In this document: one piece after another, positions 31,394 to 63,538 of the stretch
How positions within the stretch are numbered: position 1 is the stretch's first letter
Layout: the number at the start of each line of letters is the position of its first letter
Virus record (IMG/VR): IMGVR_UViG_3300005326_000040
Location: 224,001 to 288,000 of that record
Direction: 5' to 3' (one strand)
Length of the DNA: 64,000 nt
Origin: a virus
Lineage: Duplodnaviria > Caudoviricetes
Notes under the pieces: model-generated
Seen by the model: the letters and a program-made list of their open reading frames with translations, nothing else
Databases searched by the model: none
Told to the model about the DNA's origin: nothing
Translations under genes and position numbers: made by a program

Positions 31394-31711
31394 ATGGTAA
31401 GTTTTAAAAAGACAGCTGGTCCCGGTAGCGATGATTATTTGTCAGAGTTTCGTCCTATTGAAGTGGAGGTTATCAACGATCGAGTAGATATTGCCGTAAT
31501 GCGTTTTCGGACTCTTGTGACGCGAGAACGTATTATGTCTGACCTCAAGGAGGCTCAAGCTTATGAGAAGCCGTCTATGAGACGCCGACGTAAGCAGCGA
31601 GAGTCGTTACAGAGACAGCGAAAGCTTGAAAGAAGTCAGCAGTTTCGAAACCTAGAAGAGAGTAATGGCAAACGAAGACAAAAAGAAGAGCAAAAAGAAG
31701 CAAGATCCTGA
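31394..31711 (+). CDS. rpsU: ribosomal protein bS21-like
   Basis: VEV.ND.VD.A..RF......IM..LKE...YEKPS.RRRRK. Confidence 0.85.
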   Translation: MVSFKKTAGPGSDDYLSEFRPIEVEVINDRVDIAVMRFRTLVTRERIMSDLKEAQAYEKPSMRRRRKQRESLQRQRKLERSQQFRNLEESNGKRRQKEEQKEARS

Positions 31712-39056: not shown

Positions 39057-39605
39057 TTGACTATGGACAGCTGGATAGATAAATTAGCTAAGTGGTTTTT
39101 TCCTGATGTGCCAATGCGTTGGGCTTATGTAATTGTTAATGACGATGTAATGCATTGTCTTTTAACCAAGAGAGTTCCTGAAAATCGAGGGTATTACATT
39201 ACAGACGAAGACTTATGGTATTGTGACGAACTTAGACGTTGCGTTGGTAAAAATGAAAAGTTTTTTGAAACACAATCCGAAGCAATAGAAGTTCTGATAC
39301 AACAACTTGAATCAAAAATAAATCGCGCTCAACAGTTTATTTTGGAAAAAACTGATTATGTTGAGTTTTTGAAGCGCAGACTAAAGCTTGCAAAAGCAAA
39401 TGAAGCCTTAGAATTGCTTGAGAAGAAAACTGGTGAAGAGGTAGCAGAGCGGTTAGGTAAGTATCTTATACTAGAGAACGCTGTTAAGCAACTTAGGCTT
39501 ATTAACTCTTCTCAAGAAACTCATGAGGAGGATTCGATTCTTGAAGAAATGGATATTCTGTGGAATGAGATGACTGAAGAAGAAAGAGCTAAAGCAAATA
39601 GATGA
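39057..39605 (+). CDS. hypothetical protein
   Basis: AGGAG RBS. Confidence 0.6.
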   Translation: MTMDSWIDKLAKWFFPDVPMRWAYVIVNDDVMHCLLTKRVPENRGYYITDEDLWYCDELRRCVGKNEKFFETQSEAIEVLIQQLESKINRAQQFILEKTDYVEFLKRRLKLAKANEALELLEKKTGEEVAERLGKYLILENAVKQLRLINSSQETHEEDSILEEMDILWNEMTEEERAKANR

Positions 39606-40129
39606 TTATTACAGATACATCTTTTCTTCAAGATATTTGCGATCCAATTTCCTCATCAGAGGAAGAGCGCGATATTATTTCTAAACTTGAGCAAGAACTT
39701 GAAATTTCTAATAAGGCCGGATCTTTTGGGATAGGTTTGGCTGCGCCTCAAATTGGAATTAAAAAACGAGCGGCTATTGTTCGAATTGGCCCAGCGGCAA
39801 CAATCAATCTTATCAACTCTGTAATTGTAGATAAGAATGGCTCGGCGTTTTCACAAGAATCATGCTTATCTCTTCCTACAAAATCTGTTGTCGTGCAGAG
39901 AAGTTCTGATATCTTAATTGAAAACAACAGCTTCGGTATCAAGCAAAAATTTGCGGCATATGGGCTCGCTGCCATCTGTATTCAGCATGAAATGGACCAT
40001 TGGGATGGAATTTTGATTGTTGATAGGGCAATAGAAAAGCATACAGAGAGCGTTAGCGCCACGCCTAACTTACCTTGTCCATGTGGGAGTGGTAAAAAGG
40101 CAAGAAAATGTTGCAAAAAGGTGAAATAA
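39602..40129 (+). CDS. def: peptide deformylase with C-terminal SEC-C motif
   Basis: GIGLAAPQIG, ESCLS, QHEMDHWDG; CPCGSGKKARKCC. Confidence 0.92.
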   Translation: MIITDTSFLQDICDPISSSEEERDIISKLEQELEISNKAGSFGIGLAAPQIGIKKRAAIVRIGPAATINLINSVIVDKNGSAFSQESCLSLPTKSVVVQRSSDILIENNSFGIKQKFAAYGLAAICIQHEMDHWDGILIVDRAIEKHTESVSATPNLPCPCGSGKKARKCCKKVK

Positions 40130-46657: not shown

Positions 46658-47890
46658 ATGAAGCTGATTATAGTACCAGACATTCATATAGGGAAACAAA
46701 CATCTATTGGCAAAGATGCAATAGGGGTTGGATTGAATTCAAGAGTTCAAGACCAAGCGGACTTGCTTGATTTTGTGTATTCTAAGATTCTTGAAATTAA
46801 ACCGTTGTCGGTTATACTTTTAGGTGATATCTGGGAGGATGTTAATCCTCGTTCTTCTTATGTTCGTGTAGTTTTTGCGTGGATTAAGAAGATTGTCGAT
46901 TTGAATATTTCGGTACACATTATTATGGGGAACCATGATTTTGTGCGCAGCGGGCATGAGCGAGTTTCTATGTTGGATTCGTTTGATGCTTTACAAATGG
47001 AACGAGTTCACATTCATCGTAATATTGAACCGATTTATTTCAACGAACAATGTGCTGCTGTTGCAGTTCCGTTTTGTGACCGTAAACAATTAATGCTTCC
47101 AACCATTCATGAAGCGCAGGGTCATGTTATAAAAAATGTTATCGCAACAAGATTGGAAATTTTCAAAAGACTAGAAAGTGTCAAAAACACAGAAAACTTA
47201 AAGGTTATCATGTTGGGACATTTAGCTTTAGAAGGAAGCTTTTATGTCGGCGATGAAGTTGATGATGAGTCGAATGAAATTTTCGTTCCTCTAGAAGCTT
47301 TTGCTGGGTATGATTGCGCTATTATGGGACATGTGCATAACCAGCAGGAGTTATATCGAGACGGACGAACTGTCTTTGGACATTTGGGAAGTTTAGACAA
47401 AACATCTTTTAGTGAAAAAGATAAGTTTATCGCTGTCTATGACCCTGACGTTGGATTAGATTATATTAAGCTTCCATGTAGAGAGTTGATTGATATTGAC
47501 ATTGATGTTCCTTCTGAAGAAAAAGATGCGACATCTTATGTTTCGCAGCAAATTGAAAAAAACAAAGACGCTTTTGAAAACTCTATTGTTCGAATAAAAG
47601 TAAAGTTAAATTCTCATGACGCAGAAAATGTTGATAAAGACAAAATCATTGCTAATTTGAACAAAAATGGAGTGTTTCATGTCCCGTCTTTTTGTGAGAC
47701 GAGAAGTTTAGACAGAGTTTTAGTTAAAAATGCAGAAGTAGACGAGTCCGTAAATCCGATTCAAGGCTTCAAAATTTTTCTCAAGACTATTGATGCCGAG
47801 CCTGAATTCAAGGACGAGTGTTTTGAGCTTGGTAATACGGTTATCAAAACGTGTTTTGCAAACTTAGCAAATAAAGGAAATACTAAATGA
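46658..47890 (+). CDS. sbcD: SbcD/Mre11/gp47-like nuclease
   Basis: DIH, GD, GNHD, GH, GHVH phosphoesterase motifs. Confidence 0.9.
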   Translation: MKLIIVPDIHIGKQTSIGKDAIGVGLNSRVQDQADLLDFVYSKILEIKPLSVILLGDIWEDVNPRSSYVRVVFAWIKKIVDLNISVHIIMGNHDFVRSGHERVSMLDSFDALQMERVHIHRNIEPIYFNEQCAAVAVPFCDRKQLMLPTIHEAQGHVIKNVIATRLEIFKRLESVKNTENLKVIMLGHLALEGSFYVGDEVDDESNEIFVPLEAFAGYDCAIMGHVHNQQELYRDGRTVFGHLGSLDKTSFSEKDKFIAVYDPDVGLDYIKLPCRELIDIDIDVPSEEKDATSYVSQQIEKNKDAFENSIVRIKVKLNSHDAENVDKDKIIANLNKNGVFHVPSFCETRSLDRVLVKNAEVDESVNPIQGFKIFLKTIDAEPEFKDECFELGNTVIKTCFANLANKGNTK

Positions 47891-50049
47891 TTCCGGGTAA
47901 GCTAACTTTAAAAAACTTCAAAGCTCACAAAGAATCAGTCGTTGACTTTAGTAAGCTTGGTACGGCGATTCTAATTGTAGGAATTGAAGATAGTTCATCT
48001 GATGTAAGCAATGCTGTTGGAAAGTCTACTCTTTTTAGCGCTATTGAATATGTATTGTTTAACATTAACTCTACCGGAGAAATTGCTCGGGTTATTAGAG
48101 ACGGGGCTGCTAAATGTGAGGTAGAATATGAATTTAGCATGTCGGACGGTTCACATTACTTGATTAATAGGTACCGAACCAAGACGACAAATGGCGTTAC
48201 GCTAAAGGAAAGAAACAAAGACGGAGAATGGAAAGATATTTCCGGAAGGACGCCATCAGCTACAGACAAAGAGATTACAAAGATTATCAAAATCAATAGC
48301 AAGACATTTCAGAACACGTCCTATTTTATGCAGGATGATGTTGAAAATCTTGCGAAGGCTCGTCCGGAAGAGCGAAAAAAGATTATCAGTTCCATGTTGG
48401 AGCTAGGTATTTGGAAAAAGTTTAAAGAAGCATTGGATGAGGAGCGGAAACCTTTTGACAAAGAGTTGGCAATTGTCAAAGCCAAGATTGGTGATCTTGG
48501 AACTAGTCCACAAATTGAGTTGACAAACCTGGAAAATGGGCTGGAAGCTATTAGAGACTCTATTGCTCAAAGTAATATCAAATTAGAAGATGCAAAACCA
48601 AAGTTGAGCAGCAAAAAAGAATTGCTGGGGCAACTAAAGAATCTTGCAACAGATCACGCTCAGATTGACCAAAAATATAACGACGCGATTTTGTTCAAGA
48701 AAGAAACAGAGGACAATGCGAAATACATTGAATCCTCTTTGAAAGACTCCAAAGTGGAGTTGGATCGTTATGAAACCAAGGTGAAAAAAAATGATGAAGC
48801 GGTCAAAACCCGGCTTGAGAAGCTAAAGCAATTAATTGAAGAAGCTCCTCTTGCGCCGAATATGAAAAAATATGAAAGCGTAAACAATAATTTAGCTTCC
48901 CTTAACGTTGCGTTAAAGGAAGAAAGAGCCACGCTTAAAGCTCTTCTTATGGAATTGCCAGAAGACGCTATGTGTCCGGCGTGTTCAACTGTGTTGGATG
49001 AGCAACATAGGCAAGAACTAAAGGATTCTAAGCAAGTTCGCGCAAAGAAGGTTCGTGCTGAGATTGAAGAACTTCAAAAAAAGATCACTATGTGCGAGGA
49101 GGATATCGCATATTTTGAATCTCAAATTGAAGCGAGCAACGCACATAATAAACAAAAGACTCAGATTTCCGGAGAAATCACAGTTTACAATGAAGATATC
49201 CGTGTTTGTGCAATCTCAATAGAGAGGCTAAAAGAAAGAATTACTTCTTTAGAGGACAAATATACAAAAACGCAAAGTTCTATTCAAAAGGCCGCGAAGA
49301 TGTACGAAGACGCTAAACGTCTGAAAGTAGCTTCGATGAGCCAGGATAGCAATGATAAAGAAATAGAACTGGTTTCTAAGGAAATCGCAGAGCTTGATAA
49401 GATTGTCAATACACATAGTAGATTCATTAATGAAAACATGTCGGAAATCGGTTCTTATCAAGAACGAATTGAACAAAAGAAAAAAGATGTAAAGAAGAAG
49501 CTTGAGCTTGACGCTAAAGAAAAAGAGCTAACTAAAAAGCTAAAAGTCTATGACACGGTTGGTTTTGCCTTTTCAAGCAAAGGCATTCCGTTTATGATTA
49601 TCAGTTCCGTTTTGGATTCTATTCAAGAAGAAACCAATAAGGTTCTCAGTATCCTTCGGAAAAATATGCAGGTTCAGTTCATTATTGACAAAGAGACGGA
49701 TGGTGAGATAAAAGATACGTTAGATATGAAGTTTTTTGCTAACAACAAAGAATGGTCTTATGATGAGCTTTCAGGTGGACAAAAAGCTTCTGTGGCTTTG
49801 GCTTTGAAGTTCGCGATGGCTGTTGTTAGCAGAAGACGATGCGGAGCAGATATAAAGCTTCTTATGTTGGATGAAGTAGACCAGCCACTAGATGCTGCAA
49901 GTACCGAATCTTTTTATCAGATTATTCGAGAATGGTCTAAGGATATGACTATTATGGTTATTACCCATAGAGAACAATTGAAGACTAAGTTTCCAAATTT
50001 TATTTTGGTTGAAAAGAAGAATGATACAACTTCGGCAATGGTGGTATGA
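47887..50049 (+). CDS. sbcC: SbcC/Rad50/gp46-like ATPase
   Basis: NAVGKST, CPAC zinc hook, LSGGQ, LDEVD, ITH. Confidence 0.93.
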   Translation: MIPGKLTLKNFKAHKESVVDFSKLGTAILIVGIEDSSSDVSNAVGKSTLFSAIEYVLFNINSTGEIARVIRDGAAKCEVEYEFSMSDGSHYLINRYRTKTTNGVTLKERNKDGEWKDISGRTPSATDKEITKIIKINSKTFQNTSYFMQDDVENLAKARPEERKKIISSMLELGIWKKFKEALDEERKPFDKELAIVKAKIGDLGTSPQIELTNLENGLEAIRDSIAQSNIKLEDAKPKLSSKKELLGQLKNLATDHAQIDQKYNDAILFKKETEDNAKYIESSLKDSKVELDRYETKVKKNDEAVKTRLEKLKQLIEEAPLAPNMKKYESVNNNLASLNVALKEERATLKALLMELPEDAMCPACSTVLDEQHRQELKDSKQVRAKKVRAEIEELQKKITMCEEDIAYFESQIEASNAHNKQKTQISGEITVYNEDIRVCAISIERLKERITSLEDKYTKTQSSIQKAAKMYEDAKRLKVASMSQDSNDKEIELVSKEIAELDKIVNTHSRFINENMSEIGSYQERIEQKKKDVKKKLELDAKEKELTKKLKVYDTVGFAFSSKGIPFMIISSVLDSIQEETNKVLSILRKNMQVQFIIDKETDGEIKDTLDMKFFANNKEWSYDELSGGQKASVALALKFAMAVVSRRRCGADIKLLMLDEVDQPLDAASTESFYQIIREWSKDMTIMVITHREQLKTKFPNFILVEKKNDTTSAMVV

Positions 50050-50675
50050 TGGAAACTATTTATATTGGGATTAGTGGAAAAGCTAAGCATGGTAAAGATA
50101 CGTTTGCCCAGCATATTAGCATAGCATTTCGTTATGCTCCTGTTCACGCAATTCAAACCGCATTTGCTGATCCAATTAAGAAAATGGCGCAAATTCAATT
50201 TCCCCATTTGACGCGAGCGGATTTGTGGGGGCCGAGTGAAAATAGAGAAAAAATAATTCAAGGATATGTTAATCCTGAAACCGGAGAGCCTTTGAAAATC
50301 CGAGATGTTCTAAAGCATATTGGAACAACATGGGGTCGTGGAACTAATCCTAATTGCTGGATTGACGCAACTTTTGGTCACATAGATTCAACATTTTATG
50401 GCCCGCCAGTAGACTCTGGTTGTATTGCGGTAATTTCTGATTGTCGGTTTAGAAATGAATACGAAGCAATTAGAGCTAAAAAAAACAACATGATTTTCAG
50501 ATTGTGGCGGCCATCTGTTGAGAATGTTAGCTCGCATCCATCAGAAACCGAGCTTGATGATGAAAGTATTCCTTGGGATGCGCTCATCATAAATAATGAT
50601 GTTATGGACGATTTTCAAAAAGAAGCTACAAAGGCGGCTGCAAAAGTTTATGATCGATTTGGTCTTAAATTCTAG
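50046..50675 (+). CDS. deoxynucleoside monophosphate kinase
   Basis: GISGKAKHGKDT, FADPIK, ISDCRF.NE. Confidence 0.85.
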   Translation: MMETIYIGISGKAKHGKDTFAQHISIAFRYAPVHAIQTAFADPIKKMAQIQFPHLTRADLWGPSENREKIIQGYVNPETGEPLKIRDVLKHIGTTWGRGTNPNCWIDATFGHIDSTFYGPPVDSGCIAVISDCRFRNEYEAIRAKKNNMIFRLWRPSVENVSSHPSETELDDESIPWDALIINNDVMDDFQKEATKAAAKVYDRFGLKF

Positions 50676-50719: not shown

Positions 50720-51688
50720 ATGGCTGTAATCACAATCTCTGTTACTCCGTCAGAACGTCAACTGGTAAGTGGCATACCTCAATTTGTTGCTATCGCGACA
50801 AATATTGCCGCAATTATTTTCTACACTTTGGATGGCACAGATCCTAGCGAGGCAAGTTCAGTTTATACAGATCAAATTGAAATGCCAAGGGATGTTTCTG
50901 CTATAACTCTTAAGGTTTATGCTACTAACGGAACGGATTCAAGTTCTGTCCTTGCTCTGACCTACAAAACAGTTTTAGATGGAATGCGGAAAGCTCAAGC
51001 TACGGTTTCTTTCTTAGAGAGCGAATATATGTATACCTCTCTCATCGGGGGAAGCTCGTATGCTCGAAAGGTTCAATACAGTCAAGAACATATGGGAATT
51101 TTGGACAAGTCAAATGTTCCCAATACAGTTCAAGATGGGTATGGACCTTATGGAGAGTTTCCGGTTCAGTCTTACGACCAACCTATTTCTTCTTCGTCAG
51201 CGAGATATTCTGAAACCGACAGGCAGGGAAATTATGGTAGAGGTATAGGGACTTTCAATAGAACTGAAGTGGTTTACTTGCCTCCCGACCCTGAGACTAC
51301 AAAGCTTTCTGCAAAAAGTTTTAATCCTAGAGCTATGGTTTTGTTTGCTGATAGTCGGGAACCAACAGATACCGTTCACCTTTTTAGACCGCTTTATTAT
51401 GATGCGCGTCGCGTAGGCGATTATTATGAAACGTATGAGACAGACGGTAATAGATTAACTACCGGCACTTTTTTGAAACAATATTTTAATCCGCGCGATA
51501 ATACGATCACATATTATTTTAGAGACAGTCGAACGAATCGTTGGATAATTTCTGTCGAGTCAGCGTCAATACAGCCTACAAATGAACAAGCGAGCCATTT
51601 ATTCAATGTAGCTCCTGCGGCTTCAGAACAAGGCGCAGGATATATTTATCGTTGGATATTCTTTAAAGGCGGCGCCCATTTGACATAA
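50720..51688 (+). CDS. protein with N-terminal Fn3/chitobiase C-terminal-like domain
   Basis: IFYTLDGTDP...S.VYT..I.M....TLKV.A. Confidence 0.65.
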   Translation: MAVITISVTPSERQLVSGIPQFVAIATNIAAIIFYTLDGTDPSEASSVYTDQIEMPRDVSAITLKVYATNGTDSSSVLALTYKTVLDGMRKAQATVSFLESEYMYTSLIGGSSYARKVQYSQEHMGILDKSNVPNTVQDGYGPYGEFPVQSYDQPISSSSARYSETDRQGNYGRGIGTFNRTEVVYLPPDPETTKLSAKSFNPRAMVLFADSREPTDTVHLFRPLYYDARRVGDYYETYETDGNRLTTGTFLKQYFNPRDNTITYYFRDSRTNRWIISVESASIQPTNEQASHLFNVAPAASEQGAGYIYRWIFFKGGAHLT

Positions 51689-51719: not shown

Positions 51720-52529
51720 ATGAGCGAAGTTAGCGGAAAAGTTTCCTTGCCGGTGCTTTCCTATTCAAAGGTTAGCAGTTATAAACGCTGTCCTAAATGC
51801 TACAAATTAGGATATATAGATAAGCTGCCTAAAGTTGAAAAGCCATATACTGTTTTAGGTAATTTTTGTCATAGTGTTTTGGAAGCGTTCCACAAACATT
51901 GGATGCAAACACCTGTAGACAAAGATAAATTCAAAACAGTAATGCGTGATTCTTTTGCTTTGCAGCGAGAAAAATACAAGGAACGGATTCAAAAAGAACA
52001 AGTGGATGATGCTTATGGTATGATGAAGACATATCTAGAGCATATCAGCGACCCAAAGACTATTTTCCCAAATATCGTATCTTTAGAACAAAAGATTTGG
52101 GAAACAGTTAATGATGAGTTTATTTTCCTTGGTTATATCGATAGAGTACAGTTTGACAAAGAAGACAATGTGTTTCATATTGTTGACTACAAAACAACTC
52201 AAAAGAAGCAGTACTTGAAGGATGATACGCAAATTAAATTGTACGGCCATTTTATTGCCCTGAATAATCCTGAAATTGAAAACATTAGAGTTTCCTACAT
52301 TTTACTTAAACATAAAATGCAGTATATGACGAAAGAGTATAACGTTAGTGCTTTGGCAGAAGCTAAGGATCATTTTGTCGAGCAGTGGCATGAACTGAAG
52401 AATGATCAGTTGTTCAGAGCGAACGCAGGTTTTGGCAGTTGTACAATTTGTGATTACGTTGATATATGTCAAGAAGGACGAGACTTAATTCATCGTAAGA
52501 AGTCATATTTCGGCGAAACGGACTGGTGA
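51720..52529 (+). CDS. PD-(D/E)XK exonuclease (AddB/Cas4-like)
   Basis: SYS....CP, G..CH, G.IDR, DYKT, Q..LY, C..C.Y..IC. Confidence 0.85.
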   Translation: MSEVSGKVSLPVLSYSKVSSYKRCPKCYKLGYIDKLPKVEKPYTVLGNFCHSVLEAFHKHWMQTPVDKDKFKTVMRDSFALQREKYKERIQKEQVDDAYGMMKTYLEHISDPKTIFPNIVSLEQKIWETVNDEFIFLGYIDRVQFDKEDNVFHIVDYKTTQKKQYLKDDTQIKLYGHFIALNNPEIENIRVSYILLKHKMQYMTKEYNVSALAEAKDHFVEQWHELKNDQLFRANAGFGSCTICDYVDICQEGRDLIHRKKSYFGETDW

Positions 52530-53830
52530 AAGGAACAAAGATGACAATTATTCAGAAAGAAAATATCGAAACATGTCGCGATCGTATCATTTTTTCTTTT
52601 GATAAAGAGAAGGTTACAGCTACGGTAGATGACATTGTTGAGACTATTAAAAAGAATCAGACTCCCATTAAGGGTTTTCGCAAGGGACGCGCGCCGGATA
52701 GTGCTATCAAAACAACTGCTCGGAAGTATATTATCGAGGAAGTAAAACGTCGTCTTATTTCTGAGGCGTTTCAGGATATTATTTTTGAAACGAAGATTAA
52801 GCCTTTTGGTAGCCCCGACATTAAAGAAGTTGATGTTTCCATGACCAACTTTAAGTTGGATATGGAAGTGCCGTATTTCCCAACGTTTGAGCTTAATCAG
52901 CACAAAGGTTTTAATTTGACTGAGCCTACAGGGCTACCTACTATTGAAGAGCTAACAGAAAGAACAAAGTCTGATCTTCAGACCGAGCAGCCTAATCTTC
53001 GCCCGTATAATCAAGATGATTTTGCGATGGATGGAGATACCGTCTTTGTAAATTACAACGGCACTATTAACGGCAAGAGTTTCGAGAATTCTAATGCTAC
53101 TAACGTCATGATTCAAATGAATGGTGGTATGTTTGTAAGAGAATTTGAAGTTAACATTATGGGCATGCATGTAGGCGAAAAACGCGAGTTTGATATCGCT
53201 TTTACGTCAGATCATAATGTTGATAAGAAGCTCGTAGGCAAGACGGTGCATTTTGATGTCGAGCTTGCTAATGGCGTGAAGAAAGAAGTGGCAGAGATTG
53301 ATGATGCGTTTGCTCAAAAGATTGGTTTAGAGAATTTGGAAGCTCTAAATCAAAAGATTGCTGAGCGGGTTAATGCACATTTAGCGCAGCTTCGAAGTAC
53401 ACAGCTGCAAAATCAGGCGATTGATTTGATGATTGCTTCAAATCCAATTGACATTCCTGATTGGATGAGCCTAAGTGCTGCTGAGAATCTTGCGCGTTCT
53501 CGCACCTTGAATTGGAATGAATGCACCCCTGAGTTGCGACAGGGTCTTATTGCTGAGGCAGCAAAAGCTCTGAAGACATCAATGATTCTAAATGAGATTC
53601 GCGGCAAGGAAGTGGAAACAGCTTTATCTCACGATGAAATTGAAAATGTTATTAAGACCAATTTGCGTCAGCTGCCTCCTGAACTACAAACTCAGTTTTT
53701 AAGTCAGAATGGAATGATGTCTAGATTGTATGCCGAGATTCAGGACACCCAAGTTTTGGATTGGGTTGTTAAGAATTCAACTGTCGGTTCGACAACTGAA
53801 GAAACAAAAGAAGAAAACAAGGGAGAATAA
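52526..53830 (+). CDS. tig: trigger factor
   Basis: GFRKGRAP signature, FKBP domain (GD.V.VNY.G..NGK.F), C-terminal helical domain; 434 aa. Confidence 0.92.
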   Translation: MKGTKMTIIQKENIETCRDRIIFSFDKEKVTATVDDIVETIKKNQTPIKGFRKGRAPDSAIKTTARKYIIEEVKRRLISEAFQDIIFETKIKPFGSPDIKEVDVSMTNFKLDMEVPYFPTFELNQHKGFNLTEPTGLPTIEELTERTKSDLQTEQPNLRPYNQDDFAMDGDTVFVNYNGTINGKSFENSNATNVMIQMNGGMFVREFEVNIMGMHVGEKREFDIAFTSDHNVDKKLVGKTVHFDVELANGVKKEVAEIDDAFAQKIGLENLEALNQKIAERVNAHLAQLRSTQLQNQAIDLMIASNPIDIPDWMSLSAAENLARSRTLNWNECTPELRQGLIAEAAKALKTSMILNEIRGKEVETALSHDEIENVIKTNLRQLPPELQTQFLSQNGMMSRLYAEIQDTQVLDWVVKNSTVGSTTEETKEENKGE

Positions 53831-53833
53831 GTT

Positions 53834-54175
53834 ATGCCTCGTGTAAAGAAAGAAAAAGCTGGTGCCGGTGAGTTCCCCGCAAAGTTTGCCAAGGTTCTTG
53901 GTGAAGAGTGGATGAGTGCAACTGATTCTCTGGACACAGAGGAGTTGAAGAAGATTGTTGTTGACGCTGCGAATATGATCGAAGAGCAGGAAAAGCAGCG
54001 CGACGCTGATATGGAACTCAAGCAGCAGAAGGAAAAGCTCAAGGAGATGTCTGGGCTTTATAAGGAAGACCTTTTCTATCAAAAGGCCCGTATCAAGTAC
54101 TCTCTTAAGGTTCTTGAGTCCCGAGGGATCAAGGTTGCCCCTGCAAAGGAAGCGGCAATTAAAACGGGCGGATGA
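53834..54175 (+). CDS. coiled-coil hypothetical protein
   Basis: 113-aa ORF. Confidence 0.7.
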   Translation: MPRVKKEKAGAGEFPAKFAKVLGEEWMSATDSLDTEELKKIVVDAANMIEEQEKQRDADMELKQQKEKLKEMSGLYKEDLFYQKARIKYSLKVLESRGIKVAPAKEAAIKTGG

Positions 54176-55350: not shown

Positions 55351-58300
55351 ATGACAGAGTACGTTTCTCTTCACAACTATACATATTTCTCTATCATGCG
55401 GTCCATTAATAAGCCTTCGGCTTTGATGGACGCTGCCGCCGCTTTGGGGATGAAAGCCATCGCGGTGACTGATTATGGTACACTGTCTGGTTTGTGGGAT
55501 TCGTACAAAGCAGCAAAGAAAACGAAGTTGATTTGCGGCTGTCAAATTAATTTTACCGATACTCGCGATCCAGTTGTAAGGTTTCTTTGTAACGAAGATC
55601 CAAAGCCGCAAATTCAACCAAGGACGATGATTCTAATTGCAAAGAACGCAATTGGATACAAGCACCTTCTTGAAATCAATTTTGAGGCAGAAAAGTGCAA
55701 GTTAGAAAAGAACTCAAAGATTGATAAGGTTGCGCTAATTGACTGGGACGTTCTTCAAGAAAAGCATGAAGGATTGATTTGTCTCACGTCAAATGCTGGC
55801 GGAATTGTCGGGCGCCATCTTTCAGACGGCGAGCATGAAAAGGCAATCAAGGAAGCCAAACGATTCAAAGAATTGTTTGGAGACGATTTTGCTTTTGAGC
55901 TACAGCCAAACAATATGATGATGGATGGCGCAGAGCAGTTTGCTGTCAATCAAAATCTACGGCGTCTTGGCGCAGAACTAGGGATTCGATGCGTTGCCGC
56001 GAGCAATGCCTATTACGTCAACAAAGAAGAAGCTGAATGCTATGATTTCTTGGTGGCGATAAAGAATCATCGCTCTTATAATGACCGTTCGCGGCCTAAA
56101 ATTAATCGACCAAACTTTTATCTACATTCAGCGGAAGATATCGTTAAGTTCTTTTCTAGGAATTATGGAAGCAAATTTGCAGAAGAACTATGCGACAATA
56201 CAGTTTATTACGCTGACAAGTGTGAAAAGCCTGAGTGGATTAAGCCTCAGCATGTAACGGGTGACAAAGCCCTGTTGCCTGATTTTCCCGTACATGATCA
56301 GCCGGACTTGGCAGAATTTGGGAAATGGAAAGAGGACAATAAGGAAATTGTAGAACAAGTCAAAGCTGACGACAAACTCTATATGAGATACTGGTGTGAA
56401 GCCAATTGGAACAGCCACACACCTAAAGAGAAAAACCAAGTTTACTGGGACCGTTATCAGAAAGAAGAACTGCCAGTATATGAACAGCTAGGCTTCAGTT
56501 CATATATGTTAATCACTGCTGATTTTCTTCAGTGGGGGCGCAAGCAAAACATACGTATTGGTCCAGGGCGAGGTTCTGTTGGTTGTAGCTTGGTTGCTTA
56601 TGATTTAGATATCCATCGTGCTGACCCGATTAAATACGGGCTTCCTTTTGCTCGCTTCTTAAACTTGGATAAGAAAGATTATCCAGACATTGATAATGAT
56701 ATTGAACCAAATGGTCGAGAGCGAATTATTAACTACGTTCGGCGTAAGTATGGGAATGAACGGGTAGTACACGTTTCAAACTTTGTTACATTTACTCCAA
56801 AGAACGCGATTACAGACGTAATTACCTCTTTGGAAATTGGCGGCTCCAGACAGTCAGCTTTCAAGATTGCAAAAAATCTAACGGAAACAATTTCAAACGA
56901 AGCAAAATCTATTGCGTCGGCTGAAGAGTCGTCTCCTTTCCTCAAAGACTTTTTAGAGAAATATCCACAAGCTAAGAAGTTCGCAGAGGTATTGATTGGT
57001 TTGCCGCGAAGCTATTCTACACATGCCGCAGGAGTTGTAGTTAGCAAGTATAACCTCTTAGGGCTAGTTCCATTACGAATTGACGAACATGGAACTATTG
57101 CTCTCGAATATGAAAAAACCAGAACCGAAGAGAACGGTTTGGTTAAGATTGACTTCTTAGGGTTGGAAACGCTTGATATAATCAATAAAGTCCATGAGAT
57201 TATCCAGACAAATGGTGGCGAACCACCTTTAGACCCTCCCGATTTTGATAAGTACGATAAAAAGATTTTTGATATGATTTCGGAGGGTGACACGTTCGGT
57301 GTTTTTCAGTTTGGTAGTAGCGGTGGAACCATCGATATCTGCAAAAAGGTTCAGCCTATGAACCTTCTTGACCTTGCTGCTATTAACGCTTTGACGCGAC
57401 CGGGCGTTTCGCATGACGTTCGTAAGTCTTATATTGCTCGTCGGTTTGGAGAAGAACCAGCAGAGTTTCCTCACCCGTCTTTTGAACTAGCATTAAAGGA
57501 AACGCTTGGGCTTCCTATCTTTGAAGAGTGCTTTTTGTTCTTGGCTCACTATTTTTGTGGCTGGGACCTTGGCCGTAGCGATAAGATGAGAAAGATTTCA
57601 AAACTAAAAGCAAAAGGAAAACATCTTCTCAAAGAAATTAGGGAAGGCTTTATTCAAGGCGCCATGGAACATTCTGGCGTGACAGAAGAATTTGTTACAG
57701 AGATTTGGGACGAATGGGTCGTGCCTCTATCTGGATATGCGTTCAATAAGTCTCACGCTATTGAGTATTCAATGGTGGGCTTTCAGACGGCTTATTTGAA
57801 AGCCTATTACCCAGCCGAATTTATGACGGCAAACTTGATTTCTGAAATCAAGAGCAATGCTCCTCAAGCAAAAGATAACGCACTTAGATTCCGGCATATG
57901 TTGCGTAAGCATGGCGTAAAGATTTTGCCTCCGGACGTTAATCTTTCTGGGCCGACATATAAACTTGCTTCTCAATCCAAATTGATTACAGGCTTTTCCG
58001 CTCTTCATGGAGTACAGCAACCAGCAGCAGAAGACATTGCTAATAAACGCCCGTTCTCTTCGTTCACTGACTTCATAACTCGCGTAGATTCAACTCTGGT
58101 TCGTTCTCCTGTAGTTGAAGCGATGGCGGCTTGTGGGGCGTTAGATTGTTTTGGGTTGACCCGCAAATCGATGTTTTTATATGCCGCCGACTTGAAACTG
58201 AAGATGAAGAACTGGGCGAAACGAAAGACAACCCAGGGTAAGCCTTTTGAATACACTCTTCCTAATGAGGAGTGGACAAAGGGACAATTGCGAGCTTTGG

Positions 58301-58872
58301 AGACGCATTATCTTGGCGAAGCTCTTTCTGGGACCAAAAAGGATTCTTATCCCGTTCTTTTTGTTGATAAAGGAGTCTCTCATATCAGAGATATGAAAGA
58401 TATGCCGGATAAGTATCGGGTTGTTGTGGAACTGGAAGTGAAGGATTTGTTTGTCTTTAGGGTTAAGAAGAAGGAAAGCAAAATATTCAACGAGGAAGTT
58501 TGTAAGATTACTGGCGAGGATATTCTTGAAGACCAAATTGGTGTGGTTGTTTTTCCTGAGCAGTTTGCTGTGTTGCAGATGAAGTACGCTGAAACGTTCG
58601 GCGAAAATGCAAAGCTTGATAAAAACTTTGGGCTTCGTTTGTCGGGTACGATTAGCCGGTACAATGGCGAGTTGTCACTAACTGTGTCTGAGATTTATGC
58701 CTTAATGAAGCCTGTTGCCATGCCTGTAGATATGAAAAACCTTAAGAAGGAACGCAAGAAGATTGAAATCTATTCAGGTATGTCAAAGAAGAAACTGGCG
58801 GAAAAGACATCAGAAGACATTACAGAAGACTTGTTAGATATGATTGTTATGGATAAAGATTATGAATTTTGA
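55351..58872 (+). CDS. dnaE: DNA polymerase III alpha subunit
   Basis: PHP domain, GPGRGS, PDIDND, STHAAG, KIDFLGL, YAFNKSHA. Confidence 0.97.
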   Translation: MTEYVSLHNYTYFSIMRSINKPSALMDAAAALGMKAIAVTDYGTLSGLWDSYKAAKKTKLICGCQINFTDTRDPVVRFLCNEDPKPQIQPRTMILIAKNAIGYKHLLEINFEAEKCKLEKNSKIDKVALIDWDVLQEKHEGLICLTSNAGGIVGRHLSDGEHEKAIKEAKRFKELFGDDFAFELQPNNMMMDGAEQFAVNQNLRRLGAELGIRCVAASNAYYVNKEEAECYDFLVAIKNHRSYNDRSRPKINRPNFYLHSAEDIVKFFSRNYGSKFAEELCDNTVYYADKCEKPEWIKPQHVTGDKALLPDFPVHDQPDLAEFGKWKEDNKEIVEQVKADDKLYMRYWCEANWNSHTPKEKNQVYWDRYQKEELPVYEQLGFSSYMLITADFLQWGRKQNIRIGPGRGSVGCSLVAYDLDIHRADPIKYGLPFARFLNLDKKDYPDIDNDIEPNGRERIINYVRRKYGNERVVHVSNFVTFTPKNAITDVITSLEIGGSRQSAFKIAKNLTETISNEAKSIASAEESSPFLKDFLEKYPQAKKFAEVLIGLPRSYSTHAAGVVVSKYNLLGLVPLRIDEHGTIALEYEKTRTEENGLVKIDFLGLETLDIINKVHEIIQTNGGEPPLDPPDFDKYDKKIFDMISEGDTFGVFQFGSSGGTIDICKKVQPMNLLDLAAINALTRPGVSHDVRKSYIARRFGEEPAEFPHPSFELALKETLGLPIFEECFLFLAHYFCGWDLGRSDKMRKISKLKAKGKHLLKEIREGFIQGAMEHSGVTEEFVTEIWDEWVVPLSGYAFNKSHAIEYSMVGFQTAYLKAYYPAEFMTANLISEIKSNAPQAKDNALRFRHMLRKHGVKILPPDVNLSGPTYKLASQSKLITGFSALHGVQQPAAEDIANKRPFSSFTDFITRVDSTLVRSPVVEAMAACGALDCFGLTRKSMFLYAADLKLKMKNWAKRKTTQGKPFEYTLPNEEWTKGQLRALETHYLGEALSGTKKDSYPVLFVDKGVSHIRDMKDMPDKYRVVVELEVKDLFVFRVKKKESKIFNEEVCKITGEDILEDQIGVVVFPEQFAVLQMKYAETFGENAKLDKNFGLRLSGTISRYNGELSLTVSEIYALMKPVAMPVDMKNLKKERKKIEIYSGMSKKKLAEKTSEDITEDLLDMIVMDKDYEF

Positions 58873-62506: not shown

Positions 62507-63538
62507 ATGAATCTTGAGGAAGCTCATCGTCTACTAGGAACGACTGATTCTGCCACGCCAGATGATATTCGTAAAGCCTTTCGTAAAAAGGCGGCAGAAG
62601 CTCATCCTGATAAGAATCCAGGTGATGCGACCGCTGAGGCGAGATTCAAAGAAATTAACGAAGCATACCAGATTCTTTCGGGTACACAGCAGCCATCTCA
62701 TCCACAATATCATGATGTCTCGTCTGCTTATCAAAACATGCAGGTGAACTTCGAAGATTTCTTTGGTCCATTTACGGAGTTCATAAACCCGCAAGCTCAA
62801 AGAAAACAGGTGCCTTATAAGAAAAGTCATGTGCAAAAATCGGTACAGCTTTCTTTTGAAGAGTCTATTCTTGGCGCCGAAAGAGAATTCAAGTACGTAC
62901 GAAAAGTTTTTTGTAAGAAGTGTAAAGCTGAAGGGATGAATCCTGGTTCAGTTAAAAAATGTACTCAATGTAACGGCAGTGGAATGATTCAAAAGCAAAA
63001 TAAGCAGGGTGGCTTTTTTCATTTTACAGCAACAACTTGTTCTGCTTGTAATGGCCGTGGAAAAGTTGGAGAGGCTTGTCCAGATTGCCAGGGACAAGGT
63101 TTCATTAAAGAAAACAAAACTGCAAAGGTAAAGATTCCTCCAGTAGGGTCTCAGACTGATGTTGTTTTGCGTTTCCCTAAAGAGGGACATGTTTATCCAG
63201 ATGTTATTTCAGATGTTTTTATTTCAATAACGCCTACAGCATCAAAAGACAACATGGTTATTGAAGGAACTAATGTCATAATGAAACTTCCTGTACCATT
63301 GAATATTTTGTTATTTGGAGGCGAGCGACAAGTCCCAATTGTCGGGCAAACCGAATTGCGGACTATTAAAATAAATGAATCATCCAAAGTTGGCGACAAT
63401 ATAGTCTTAAACGAATGCGGAGTAAGGAGTTTTCAATCCTCTTCGCCCGGAAAATTGGTTATACAACTGGATATTGAATATCCAAAAAAACTAACACCAG
63501 AACTAAAAGAACAACTAACAAAAGCATACGAGGATTAA
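62507..63538 (+). CDS. dnaJ: DnaJ co-chaperone
   Basis: HPD J-domain, four CxxCxGxG-type repeats, C-terminal domain. Confidence 0.95.
   Translation: MNLEEAHRLLGTTDSATPDDIRKAFRKKAAEAHPDKNPGDATAEARFKEINEAYQILSGTQQPSHPQYHDVSSAYQNMQVNFEDFFGPFTEFINPQAQRKQVPYKKSHVQKSVQLSFEESILGAEREFKYVRKVFCKKCKAEGMNPGSVKKCTQCNGSGMIQKQNKQGGFFHFTATTCSACNGRGKVGEACPDCQGQGFIKENKTAKVKIPPVGSQTDVVLRFPKEGHVYPDVISDVFISITPTASKDNMVIEGTNVIMKLPVPLNILLFGGERQVPIVGQTELRTIKINESSKVGDNIVLNECGVRSFQSSSPGKLVIQLDIEYPKKLTPELKEQLTKAYED

Follow-up and report, generated by a model that had tools for sequence, protein, structure and literature searches.

A divergent trigger factor is a conserved, near-core gene of an uncultured clade of large phages

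Trigger factor (TF), the bacterial chaperone that receives newly made proteins as they leave the ribosome, is viewed as a housekeeping protein of cells; in bacteria its gene, tig, and the protease gene clpP are neighbours. Chaperones encoded by phages include the GroES-like gp31 of T4, the GroEL of phage EL and the DnaJ and Hsp20 proteins of jumbo phages. In common with these, the phage-encoded trigger factor (Tig) considered here appears as a phage copy of a host folding helper, put to use for phage proteins. However, gp31, GroEL, DnaJ and Hsp20 act after release from the ribosome, GroEL with ATP, whereas a trigger factor acts at the ribosome exit without ATP. The gene lies in a stretch of 64,000 nucleotides, referred to below as the window, which corresponds to bases 224001-288000 of a 338,055-bp IMG/VR virus record (IMGVR_UViG_3300005326_000040; Caudoviricetes) rated 97% complete by CheckV. 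Phage Tig is an old monophyletic viral branch and a vertically inherited, near-core gene of an uncultured clade of 200-480 kb phages, in which it lies between a PD-(D/E)XK nuclease and DnaE.

The closest described viral systems are the translation and proteostasis gene sets of huge phages (PMC7162821, PMC9723584, PMC7824862). These likewise belong to uncultured phages of >200 kb, of groundwater or freshwater type, with bS21, peptide deformylase (PDF), DnaJ and ClpP, and the common idea is that of a phage supporting or redirecting host protein production. Trigger factor is absent from the main texts of these studies (Al-Shayeb et al. 2020, PMC7162821; Chen et al. 2022, PMC9723584; Iyer et al. 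2021, PMC7824862). Of the first 200 GenBank files in the supplement to Al-Shayeb et al. 2020, however, 11 do contain an automatic ‘trigger factor’ product name, and one of these entries has the N-terminus typical of the phage Tig family; a lipoprotein-like ‘putative trigger factor’ among the 11 files was read as a different protein. According to a virome study (PMC8407431), the viruses that it covered yielded no analogue of TF, and phrase searches of the literature found no paper discussing a phage or viral trigger factor. On the ‘Hodor’ conjugative megaplasmids, a trigger factor has been proposed to chaperone the element's own giant proteins (bioRxiv 10.64898/2026.02.21.707213; PMC12934698). 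That Tig is also carried by a very large mobile element, but the element is a plasmid and the gene lies beside sortase and SecYEG genes. As far as searched, the clade-wide conservation, monophyly and selection of phage Tig are undescribed in print; the protein is present in databases.

At the level of the protein itself, the closest described system is bacterial TF (TIGR00115; E. coli 1w26/2vrh; T. maritima 3gty), with which the window Tig shares the N-FKBP-C order of domains, the GFRKG(K/R)xP loop, a length of ~430 amino acids (aa) and the full-length predicted fold. It differs from bacterial TF in being virus-encoded, in being only 21-25% identical to solved and bacterial TFs and in falling into a separate clade. 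In addition, it is found between a nuclease and DnaE rather than beside clpP-clpX, and the pocket of its FKBP-type prolyl isomerase (PPIase) domain is partly changed here and widely decayed in relatives. The gene and its parts are placed on the window as follows.

52541..53830, + strand: coding sequence of the phage trigger factor (Tig), 429 aa (P0002), from the open reading frame (ORF), Pfam, TIGR00115 and an AlphaFold2 (AF2) model
52526, + strand: alternative GTG start of Tig, giving 434 aa (P0001)
52541..52894, + strand: N-terminal ribosome-binding domain (residues 1-118), from Trigger_N at P0001 residues 9-145 and a model match to 1oms
52673..52696, + strand: signature loop of TF, GFRKGRAP (residues 45-52), which in the bacterial protein is the motif for docking on uL23; read from sequence
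52988..53290, + strand: FKBP-type PPIase ‘head’ domain (residues ~150-250), from FKBP_C (residues 166-247) and structural matches
53291..53788, + strand: C-terminal ‘arms’ domain (residues ~251-416), from Trigger_C, followed by a short acidic tail

The frame is intact on the + strand, with candidate starts at 52526 (GTG) and 52541 (ATG) and its end at 53830. All three Pfam domains of TF score over their cut-offs (Trigger_N 5e-21, FKBP_C 7e-13, Trigger_C 5e-10), and the NCBIfam equivalog TIGR00115 is matched with 235.4 bits (cut-off 180.2) from position 4 to position 409 of the 410-position model; the scores of related phage Tigs straddle this cut-off (179-245 bits). The PHROGs match is to a family of unknown function (phrog_26774, 3.7e-33). 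The signature loop GFRKGRAP aligns with GFRKGKVP of E. coli TF (residues 43-50), and the C-terminal arms are alignable to the E. coli protein as far as residue 399. A first-pass annotation of this DNA, made from the letters alone, had called the gene a full-length trigger factor with its signature, FKBP domain and C-domain intact, and these matches, together with the predicted fold described below, bear it out. The same annotation had the gene start overlapping the stop codon of the upstream nuclease, which requires the GTG at 52526 and did not hold, this start being disfavoured by the alignment of homologues and by the database gene call. The ATG at 52541 is the position where aligned homologues begin in the family alignment; it also opens the database gene call, which is the 429-aa form (P0002), and has an AAAGGA Shine-Dalgarno-like sequence upstream. 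On these three grounds it is preferred, and the predicted start is most likely ATG 52541, 11 nt past the nuclease stop and without overlap. Scanning the surroundings of Tig for promoter and terminator consensus sequences gave nothing informative.

The AF2 model, built with a 136-row family alignment, has a mean predicted local distance difference test score (pLDDT) of 96 and a predicted template-modelling score (pTM) of 0.86. Its best PDB matches in Foldseek are 1w26_A (E 8e-23), 2vrh_A and 3gty_X, the full-length E. coli and T. maritima TFs being matched over ~428 columns with E values of 8e-23 to 3e-21. Taken in isolation, the N-domain matches 1oms with a template-modelling (TM) score, normalized to the target, of 0.77-0.78 and a root-mean-square deviation of 2.8-2.9 Å. 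The head domain matches the TF PPIase domain (1l1p) and FKBP12, and the C-terminal domain contains a helical bundle (H266-411). Among the viral protein structures of the BFVD library, no Tig-like fold was found at E <= 1e-3. A complex prediction for the N-domain with E. coli uL23 scored 0.00, was run without controls and is counted neither for nor against docking.

Across 159 phage-type Tigs the docking loop keeps its first G in 158, F/Y in 144, R in 156, the second G in 152 and K/R in 150. Despite an overall identity of ~30%, the loop varies no more among the phage proteins than in the bacterial set. The N-domain as a whole is the most conserved domain across the phage Tig family. Judged from the sequences, selection seems to maintain the chaperone and docking functions of phage Tig.

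A Tig profile search of 1.84 billion representative proteins returned 21,481 matches, the best 150 of which all score at least 198 bits. In a FastTree phylogeny of 290 rows, one branch (support 99) parts 131 rows from the 159 phage-type rows, none of which is bacterial. The same split is recovered by IQ-TREE under LG+C20 against 47 bacterial Tigs (Shimodaira-Hasegawa-like approximate likelihood ratio test, SH-aLRT, 99), and it holds with the same SH-aLRT of 99 after the addition of 16 Bacteroidota Tigs, which form a clade of their own. A comparison with bacterial Tig had been named in the first-pass annotation as a check, and its outcome is that the phage Tigs are one clade, apart from all sampled bacterial Tigs. 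Within the phage set the window Tig belongs to a 13-row subclade (support 100), a placement shared by the IQ-TREE trees, and its closest relatives there are P0064 (39% identity) and a protein of the IMG/VR contig L006 (35-36%). The closest proteins among 5.8 billion clusters are 34%, 29% and 27% identical to it, and the bacterial Tigs there 22-25%; overall, bacterial and phage Tigs share 19-27% identity, and the window Tig and E. coli TF ~22%. The phage clade joins the bacterial tree at a deep node without support, and not as sister to the Bacteroidota Tigs, in a bacterial sample that is biased by retrieval. Because the joining node is unsupported, no donor lineage can be named. The ratio of nonsynonymous to synonymous substitution rates (dN/dS) of Tig is 0.04-0.19, with a median of 0.08, in 22 pairs of related phage genes with usable dS. 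For SbcC, the nuclease and DnaE, those phage pairs give values of 0.01-0.19. The Tig values lie in the range of these three, and Tig is therefore as constrained as core replication genes.

The inheritance of the gene can also be followed through its neighbourhood, a block of replication and recombination genes on one strand.

46658..50675, + strand: SbcD-like phosphoesterase, SbcC-like ATPase and deoxynucleoside monophosphate (dNMP) kinase, with which the conserved block opens upstream (Pfam, PHROG, synteny)
50720..51688, + strand: 322-aa protein with an N-terminal CHB_HEX_C_1/Fn3_assoc domain (Pfam, synteny)
51720..52529, + strand: PD-(D/E)XK (Cas4/RecB-like) exonuclease, directly upstream of Tig (PDDEXK_1 3e-28, phrog_69)
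53834..54175, + strand: 113-aa protein of no known family, right after Tig (tblastn orthologues)
55351..58872, + strand: DnaE-type DNA polymerase III alpha subunit, the downstream anchor (PHP, DNA_pol3_alpha, finger and HHH_6 domains; phrog_405 5e-228)

Tig is thus flanked by the PD-(D/E)XK nuclease and DnaE, in agreement with the earlier description of the gene as embedded in the phage replication module. The order SbcD-SbcC-dNMP kinase-CHB_HEX protein-PD-(D/E)XK nuclease-Tig-DnaE is found in >100 phage contigs from many samples, which excludes the possibility, raised at the same time, that the contig is chimeric or bacterial at this locus. The Logan contigs that encode the three closest Tig proteins have the same order of CHB_HEX protein, nuclease, Tig, small gene and DnaE. 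A profile scan of IMG/VR with Tig gave 34 loci on contigs of up to 428 kb, whereas a single-protein pattern scan of the same collection had found nothing. By tblastn with the window neighbours, the whole block SbcD-SbcC-dNMP kinase-CHB_HEX-nuclease-Tig-DnaE-p233-p117 is present at 32 of the 34, and the remaining two loci hold bacterial-type Tigs without the block context. To avoid circularity, a profile search of IMG/VR with the nuclease only was used as an anchor. Downstream of the nuclease, Tig is present in 78 of the 80 best loci so anchored, with scores of 241-568 bits against its hidden Markov model (HMM). The other two (L197:7740-9569 and L198:7739-9562) have genes of 258 aa and ~349 aa instead; considered as Tig remnants, these showed no detectable relation to Tig. 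The relatives that carry Tig include a genome of 428 kb, rated 100% complete, which has direct terminal repeats.

In a Tig profile scan of 185,579 species genomes the block turned up three more times, on contigs that binning had placed in metagenome-assembled genomes (MAGs) of Bacteroidia, Chitinophagales and Thioploca. Each of the three MAGs also has a separate Tig of its own, because of which the block contigs look like binned phage DNA. On L042:4108-6240 (+), the PD-(D/E)XK nuclease and Tig form a single 710-aa frame, identical to P0075, whose contig was binned into the Thioploca MAG. This frame is either a natural fusion or the result of a lost stop codon between genes that normally lie ~10 nt apart.

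Catalogued phages present a different picture. In 50,697 GenBank phage records, tblastn with Tig gave 22 weak matches of <30% identity, mostly to short unannotated ‘Bacteriophage sp.’ fragments, and these are probably bacterial DNA under phage names. Some very short phage-named records (e.g. OR851629.1, 1589 bp; MT838126.1) hold bacterial-type Tig or DnaE fragments without annotation. The first-pass view that Tig is uncommon in phages is therefore correct for catalogued phages, from the GenBank and BFVD results, but does not extend to this uncultured jumbo-phage clade, in which the gene is near-universal, or to published huge-phage files, in which it has been auto-annotated.

Several features of the genome around the block confirm the phage location of Tig. 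Besides the IMG/VR record and its CheckV estimate, the contig has, ~22 kb downstream of Tig and on its strand, genes for the large subunit of terminase (phrog_675, 1.8e-59) and for a portal protein (phrog_16240, 7.6e-45); both were identified by PHROGs on large downstream ORFs, Pfam Terminase_6C having no match in the genome. GC content is even over the window (0.37-0.43). Megablast of the 15 kb around Tig against the GenBank phage records gave no match, and tblastn with DnaE against the same set found no cultured relative above ~31% identity. The genome has 19 tRNA genes. ARAGORN reports, in a tRNA cluster outside the window, a tRNA with anticodon TTA (G000:C1:28046-28121), a possible ochre suppressor, and elsewhere a tRNA-like gene with a two-base ‘anticodon’ (G000:C1 87933-88004).

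Two neighbours of Tig merit separate description. A CHB_HEX_C_1/Fn3_assoc (chitobiase/hexosaminidase C-terminal) domain inside a replication block is an odd location, and the position is kept in almost all related phages. The 113-aa protein, which begins 3 nt after Tig and has no Pfam or PHROG match, is charged and probably helical, and counterparts with 31-50% identity lie directly behind Tig in many related loci. Between Tig and DnaE there are three small genes of no assigned function, followed by a DUF3307 gene.

Tig is not the only gene of the window with a connection to protein synthesis and folding.

31394..31711, + strand: homologue of ribosomal protein bS21 with terminal extensions (PF01165 43.9 bits at 31463-31621)
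39602..40129, + strand: peptide deformylase (PDF) with a C-terminal SEC-C-type Cys motif (PF01327 96.9 bits; catalytic motifs and CPCGSGKKARKCC in the translation)
62507..63538, + strand: full-length DnaJ with J domain, CXXCXGXG zinc centre and C-terminal domain (Pfam DnaJ, DnaJ_CXXCXGXG, DnaJ_C)

The HPD and CxxCxGxG motifs are located in the DnaJ ORF. The PDF keeps its three catalytic motifs and ends in LPCPCGSGKKARKCCKKVK, a SEC-C-type zinc motif as in the tail of SecA, which replaces the usual C-terminal helix. A ClpP protease gene (227 bits) lies 3.4 kb before the window (G000:C1:220055-220588), so that tig and clpP are 56 kb apart in this phage. DnaK, GroEL and IF3 were looked for in the phage genome and none was found. 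Of 18 related records (200-481 kb), 16 encode PDF, 17 encode bS21 and all 18 encode DnaJ. The eight that are at least 90% complete have every one of the three, and in the related records these genes occupy the same neighbourhood as the Tig block. The statement in the first-pass annotation that PDF, bS21 and DnaJ accompany Tig thus applies to this phage and to 16-18 of its 18 large relatives, and the set of Tig, PDF, bS21 and DnaJ is a conserved feature of the clade. The further proposal of that annotation, that the phage may in this way control the co-translational processing of nascent chains, stays a proposal, the four genes being dispersed over ~32 kb amid replication genes rather than arranged as an operon. 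IMG/VR labels nine of the 18 related 200-480 kb records ‘provirus’ (G037, G039, G041-G043, G045, G046 and G049 among them); these labels may be spurious, brought about by the large number of bacterial-like genes (Tig, DnaE, ClpP, DnaJ), or some of the records may be integrated.

These observations suggest a role for the protein: phage Tig probably docks on host ribosomes and chaperones nascent phage proteins. The course of events that we infer, including ribosome binding, client range, timing and benefit, begins with Tig being made along with the early or middle replication genes. It would then dock at uL23 of the host 50S subunit via the conserved GFRxGK/R loop and act as an ATP-independent holdase and foldase for nascent phage polypeptides, either adding to the host TF capacity or replacing it. 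Phage DnaJ would recruit host DnaK, and phage PDF and ClpP would process and cull products. Prolyl isomerization is probably a secondary activity, given the family-wide decay of the FKBP pocket.

A number of points weigh against this interpretation. Tig is found among replication and recombination genes, not translation genes, and is fused in frame to the nuclease in one lineage; this position and the fusion could point to a client or a role off the ribosome. The last Pro of the signature motif, though present in the window Tig, is found in only 75 of the 159 phage-type Tigs. The isomerase pocket has also changed: residues F168/F177/F185/I195/F198/Y221/F233 of the E. coli protein correspond to Y/F/V/V/F/H/F in the window Tig, in which the core aromatic residues are kept and Y221 and F185 are altered, and the IPGF motif of E. 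coli TF reads VREF. At the position of Y221, 55 of the 159 phage-type rows have a gap, and at that of F185 most rows have Glu; several related Tigs give no FKBP_C match at all. The window Tig need not be a working isomerase.

Three other explanations can be considered. The first, which we regard as unlikely, is that Tig works mainly in the cytoplasm, where it would hold and assemble large phage complexes (replisome, recombination nucleases, or parts of head and tail), by analogy with T. maritima TF and ribosomal protein S7, and that docking is minor. Such an assembly chaperone would suit the fixed position of the gene inside the replication and recombination block, the decayed isomerase pocket, the in-frame PD-(D/E)XK-Tig fusion of one lineage (L042 = P0075; 710 aa) and a structural match that includes TF bound to S7 (3gty_X). 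However, conservation within the phage family is highest in the docking loop and the N-domain, which would be hard to explain if docking were unimportant. The fusion is moreover a single instance, which one stop-codon change between genes ~10 nt apart could yield, and gene order in phage early regions is weak evidence of physical partnership.

A second explanation, to which we give rather little credence, is that phage Tig competes with host TF, displacing it at uL23 and altering the fate of nascent chains, so that together with bS21 and the SEC-C-tailed PDF it would give rise to ‘phage-customised’ ribosomes. Variants of this idea are that the takeover would work to the advantage of phage products, that it would upset secretion or division in the host, or that it would weaken a host defence directed at translation. 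The clade-wide co-occurrence of Tig with bS21, PDF and DnaJ is in keeping with it, as are the replacement of the PDF C-terminus by a SEC-C-type zinc motif and the 19-27% identity between phage and bacterial Tigs, which implies that client or partner surfaces have diverged; proposals that phage bS21 redirects ribosomes have also been published (PMC9723584). Yet no sequence feature would tell a competitor apart from a mere helper, the ~32 kb over which the four genes are scattered is not a single operon, and ordinary TF function is the simplest reading of an intact, fully TF-like fold.

The third, that bacterial DNA was misassembled into a phage contig or that a recent host-derived gene is carried without a phage role, has on its side that Tig is a core bacterial gene, that IMG/VR labels half of the 18 related large records (nine) ‘provirus’ and that the weak matches in the GenBank phage collection resemble bacterial fragments, but is rendered highly improbable by the same flanking genes in >100 independent contigs from many samples, by closest bacterial Tigs that are 19-27% identical and all lie across the 99-supported branch, by strong purifying selection, by the separate Tigs of the MAGs that hold such contigs and by the presence of Tig in a 100%-complete relative with terminal repeats.

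The preferred reading thus remains that of a ribosome-docking chaperone for nascent phage proteins. A bolder extension of it, which is speculative and in our judgement unlikely to be correct, is that Tig is part of a conserved viral kit turning host ribosomes into phage-specialised ones. In such a kit, bS21 would act on the 30S subunit, Tig and the SEC-C-tailed PDF at the 50S exit, and DnaJ would draft host DnaK, with ClpP as a further component; Tig would displace host TF and selectively guide phage nascent chains.

What can be said of the family is that a clade of giant phages has long kept its own Tig, under selection as strong as that on its DNA polymerase and with the docking loop intact. 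Viral reach into host protein synthesis, known at initiation (bS21) and N-terminal processing (PDF), would thereby extend to co-translational folding. Phage Tig is also a natural and very divergent TF (~22% identity to that of E. coli) that should still dock on ribosomes, and as such it may help to find out which features a minimal ribosome-docking chaperone has to retain and whether the handling of nascent chains is tuned by viruses.

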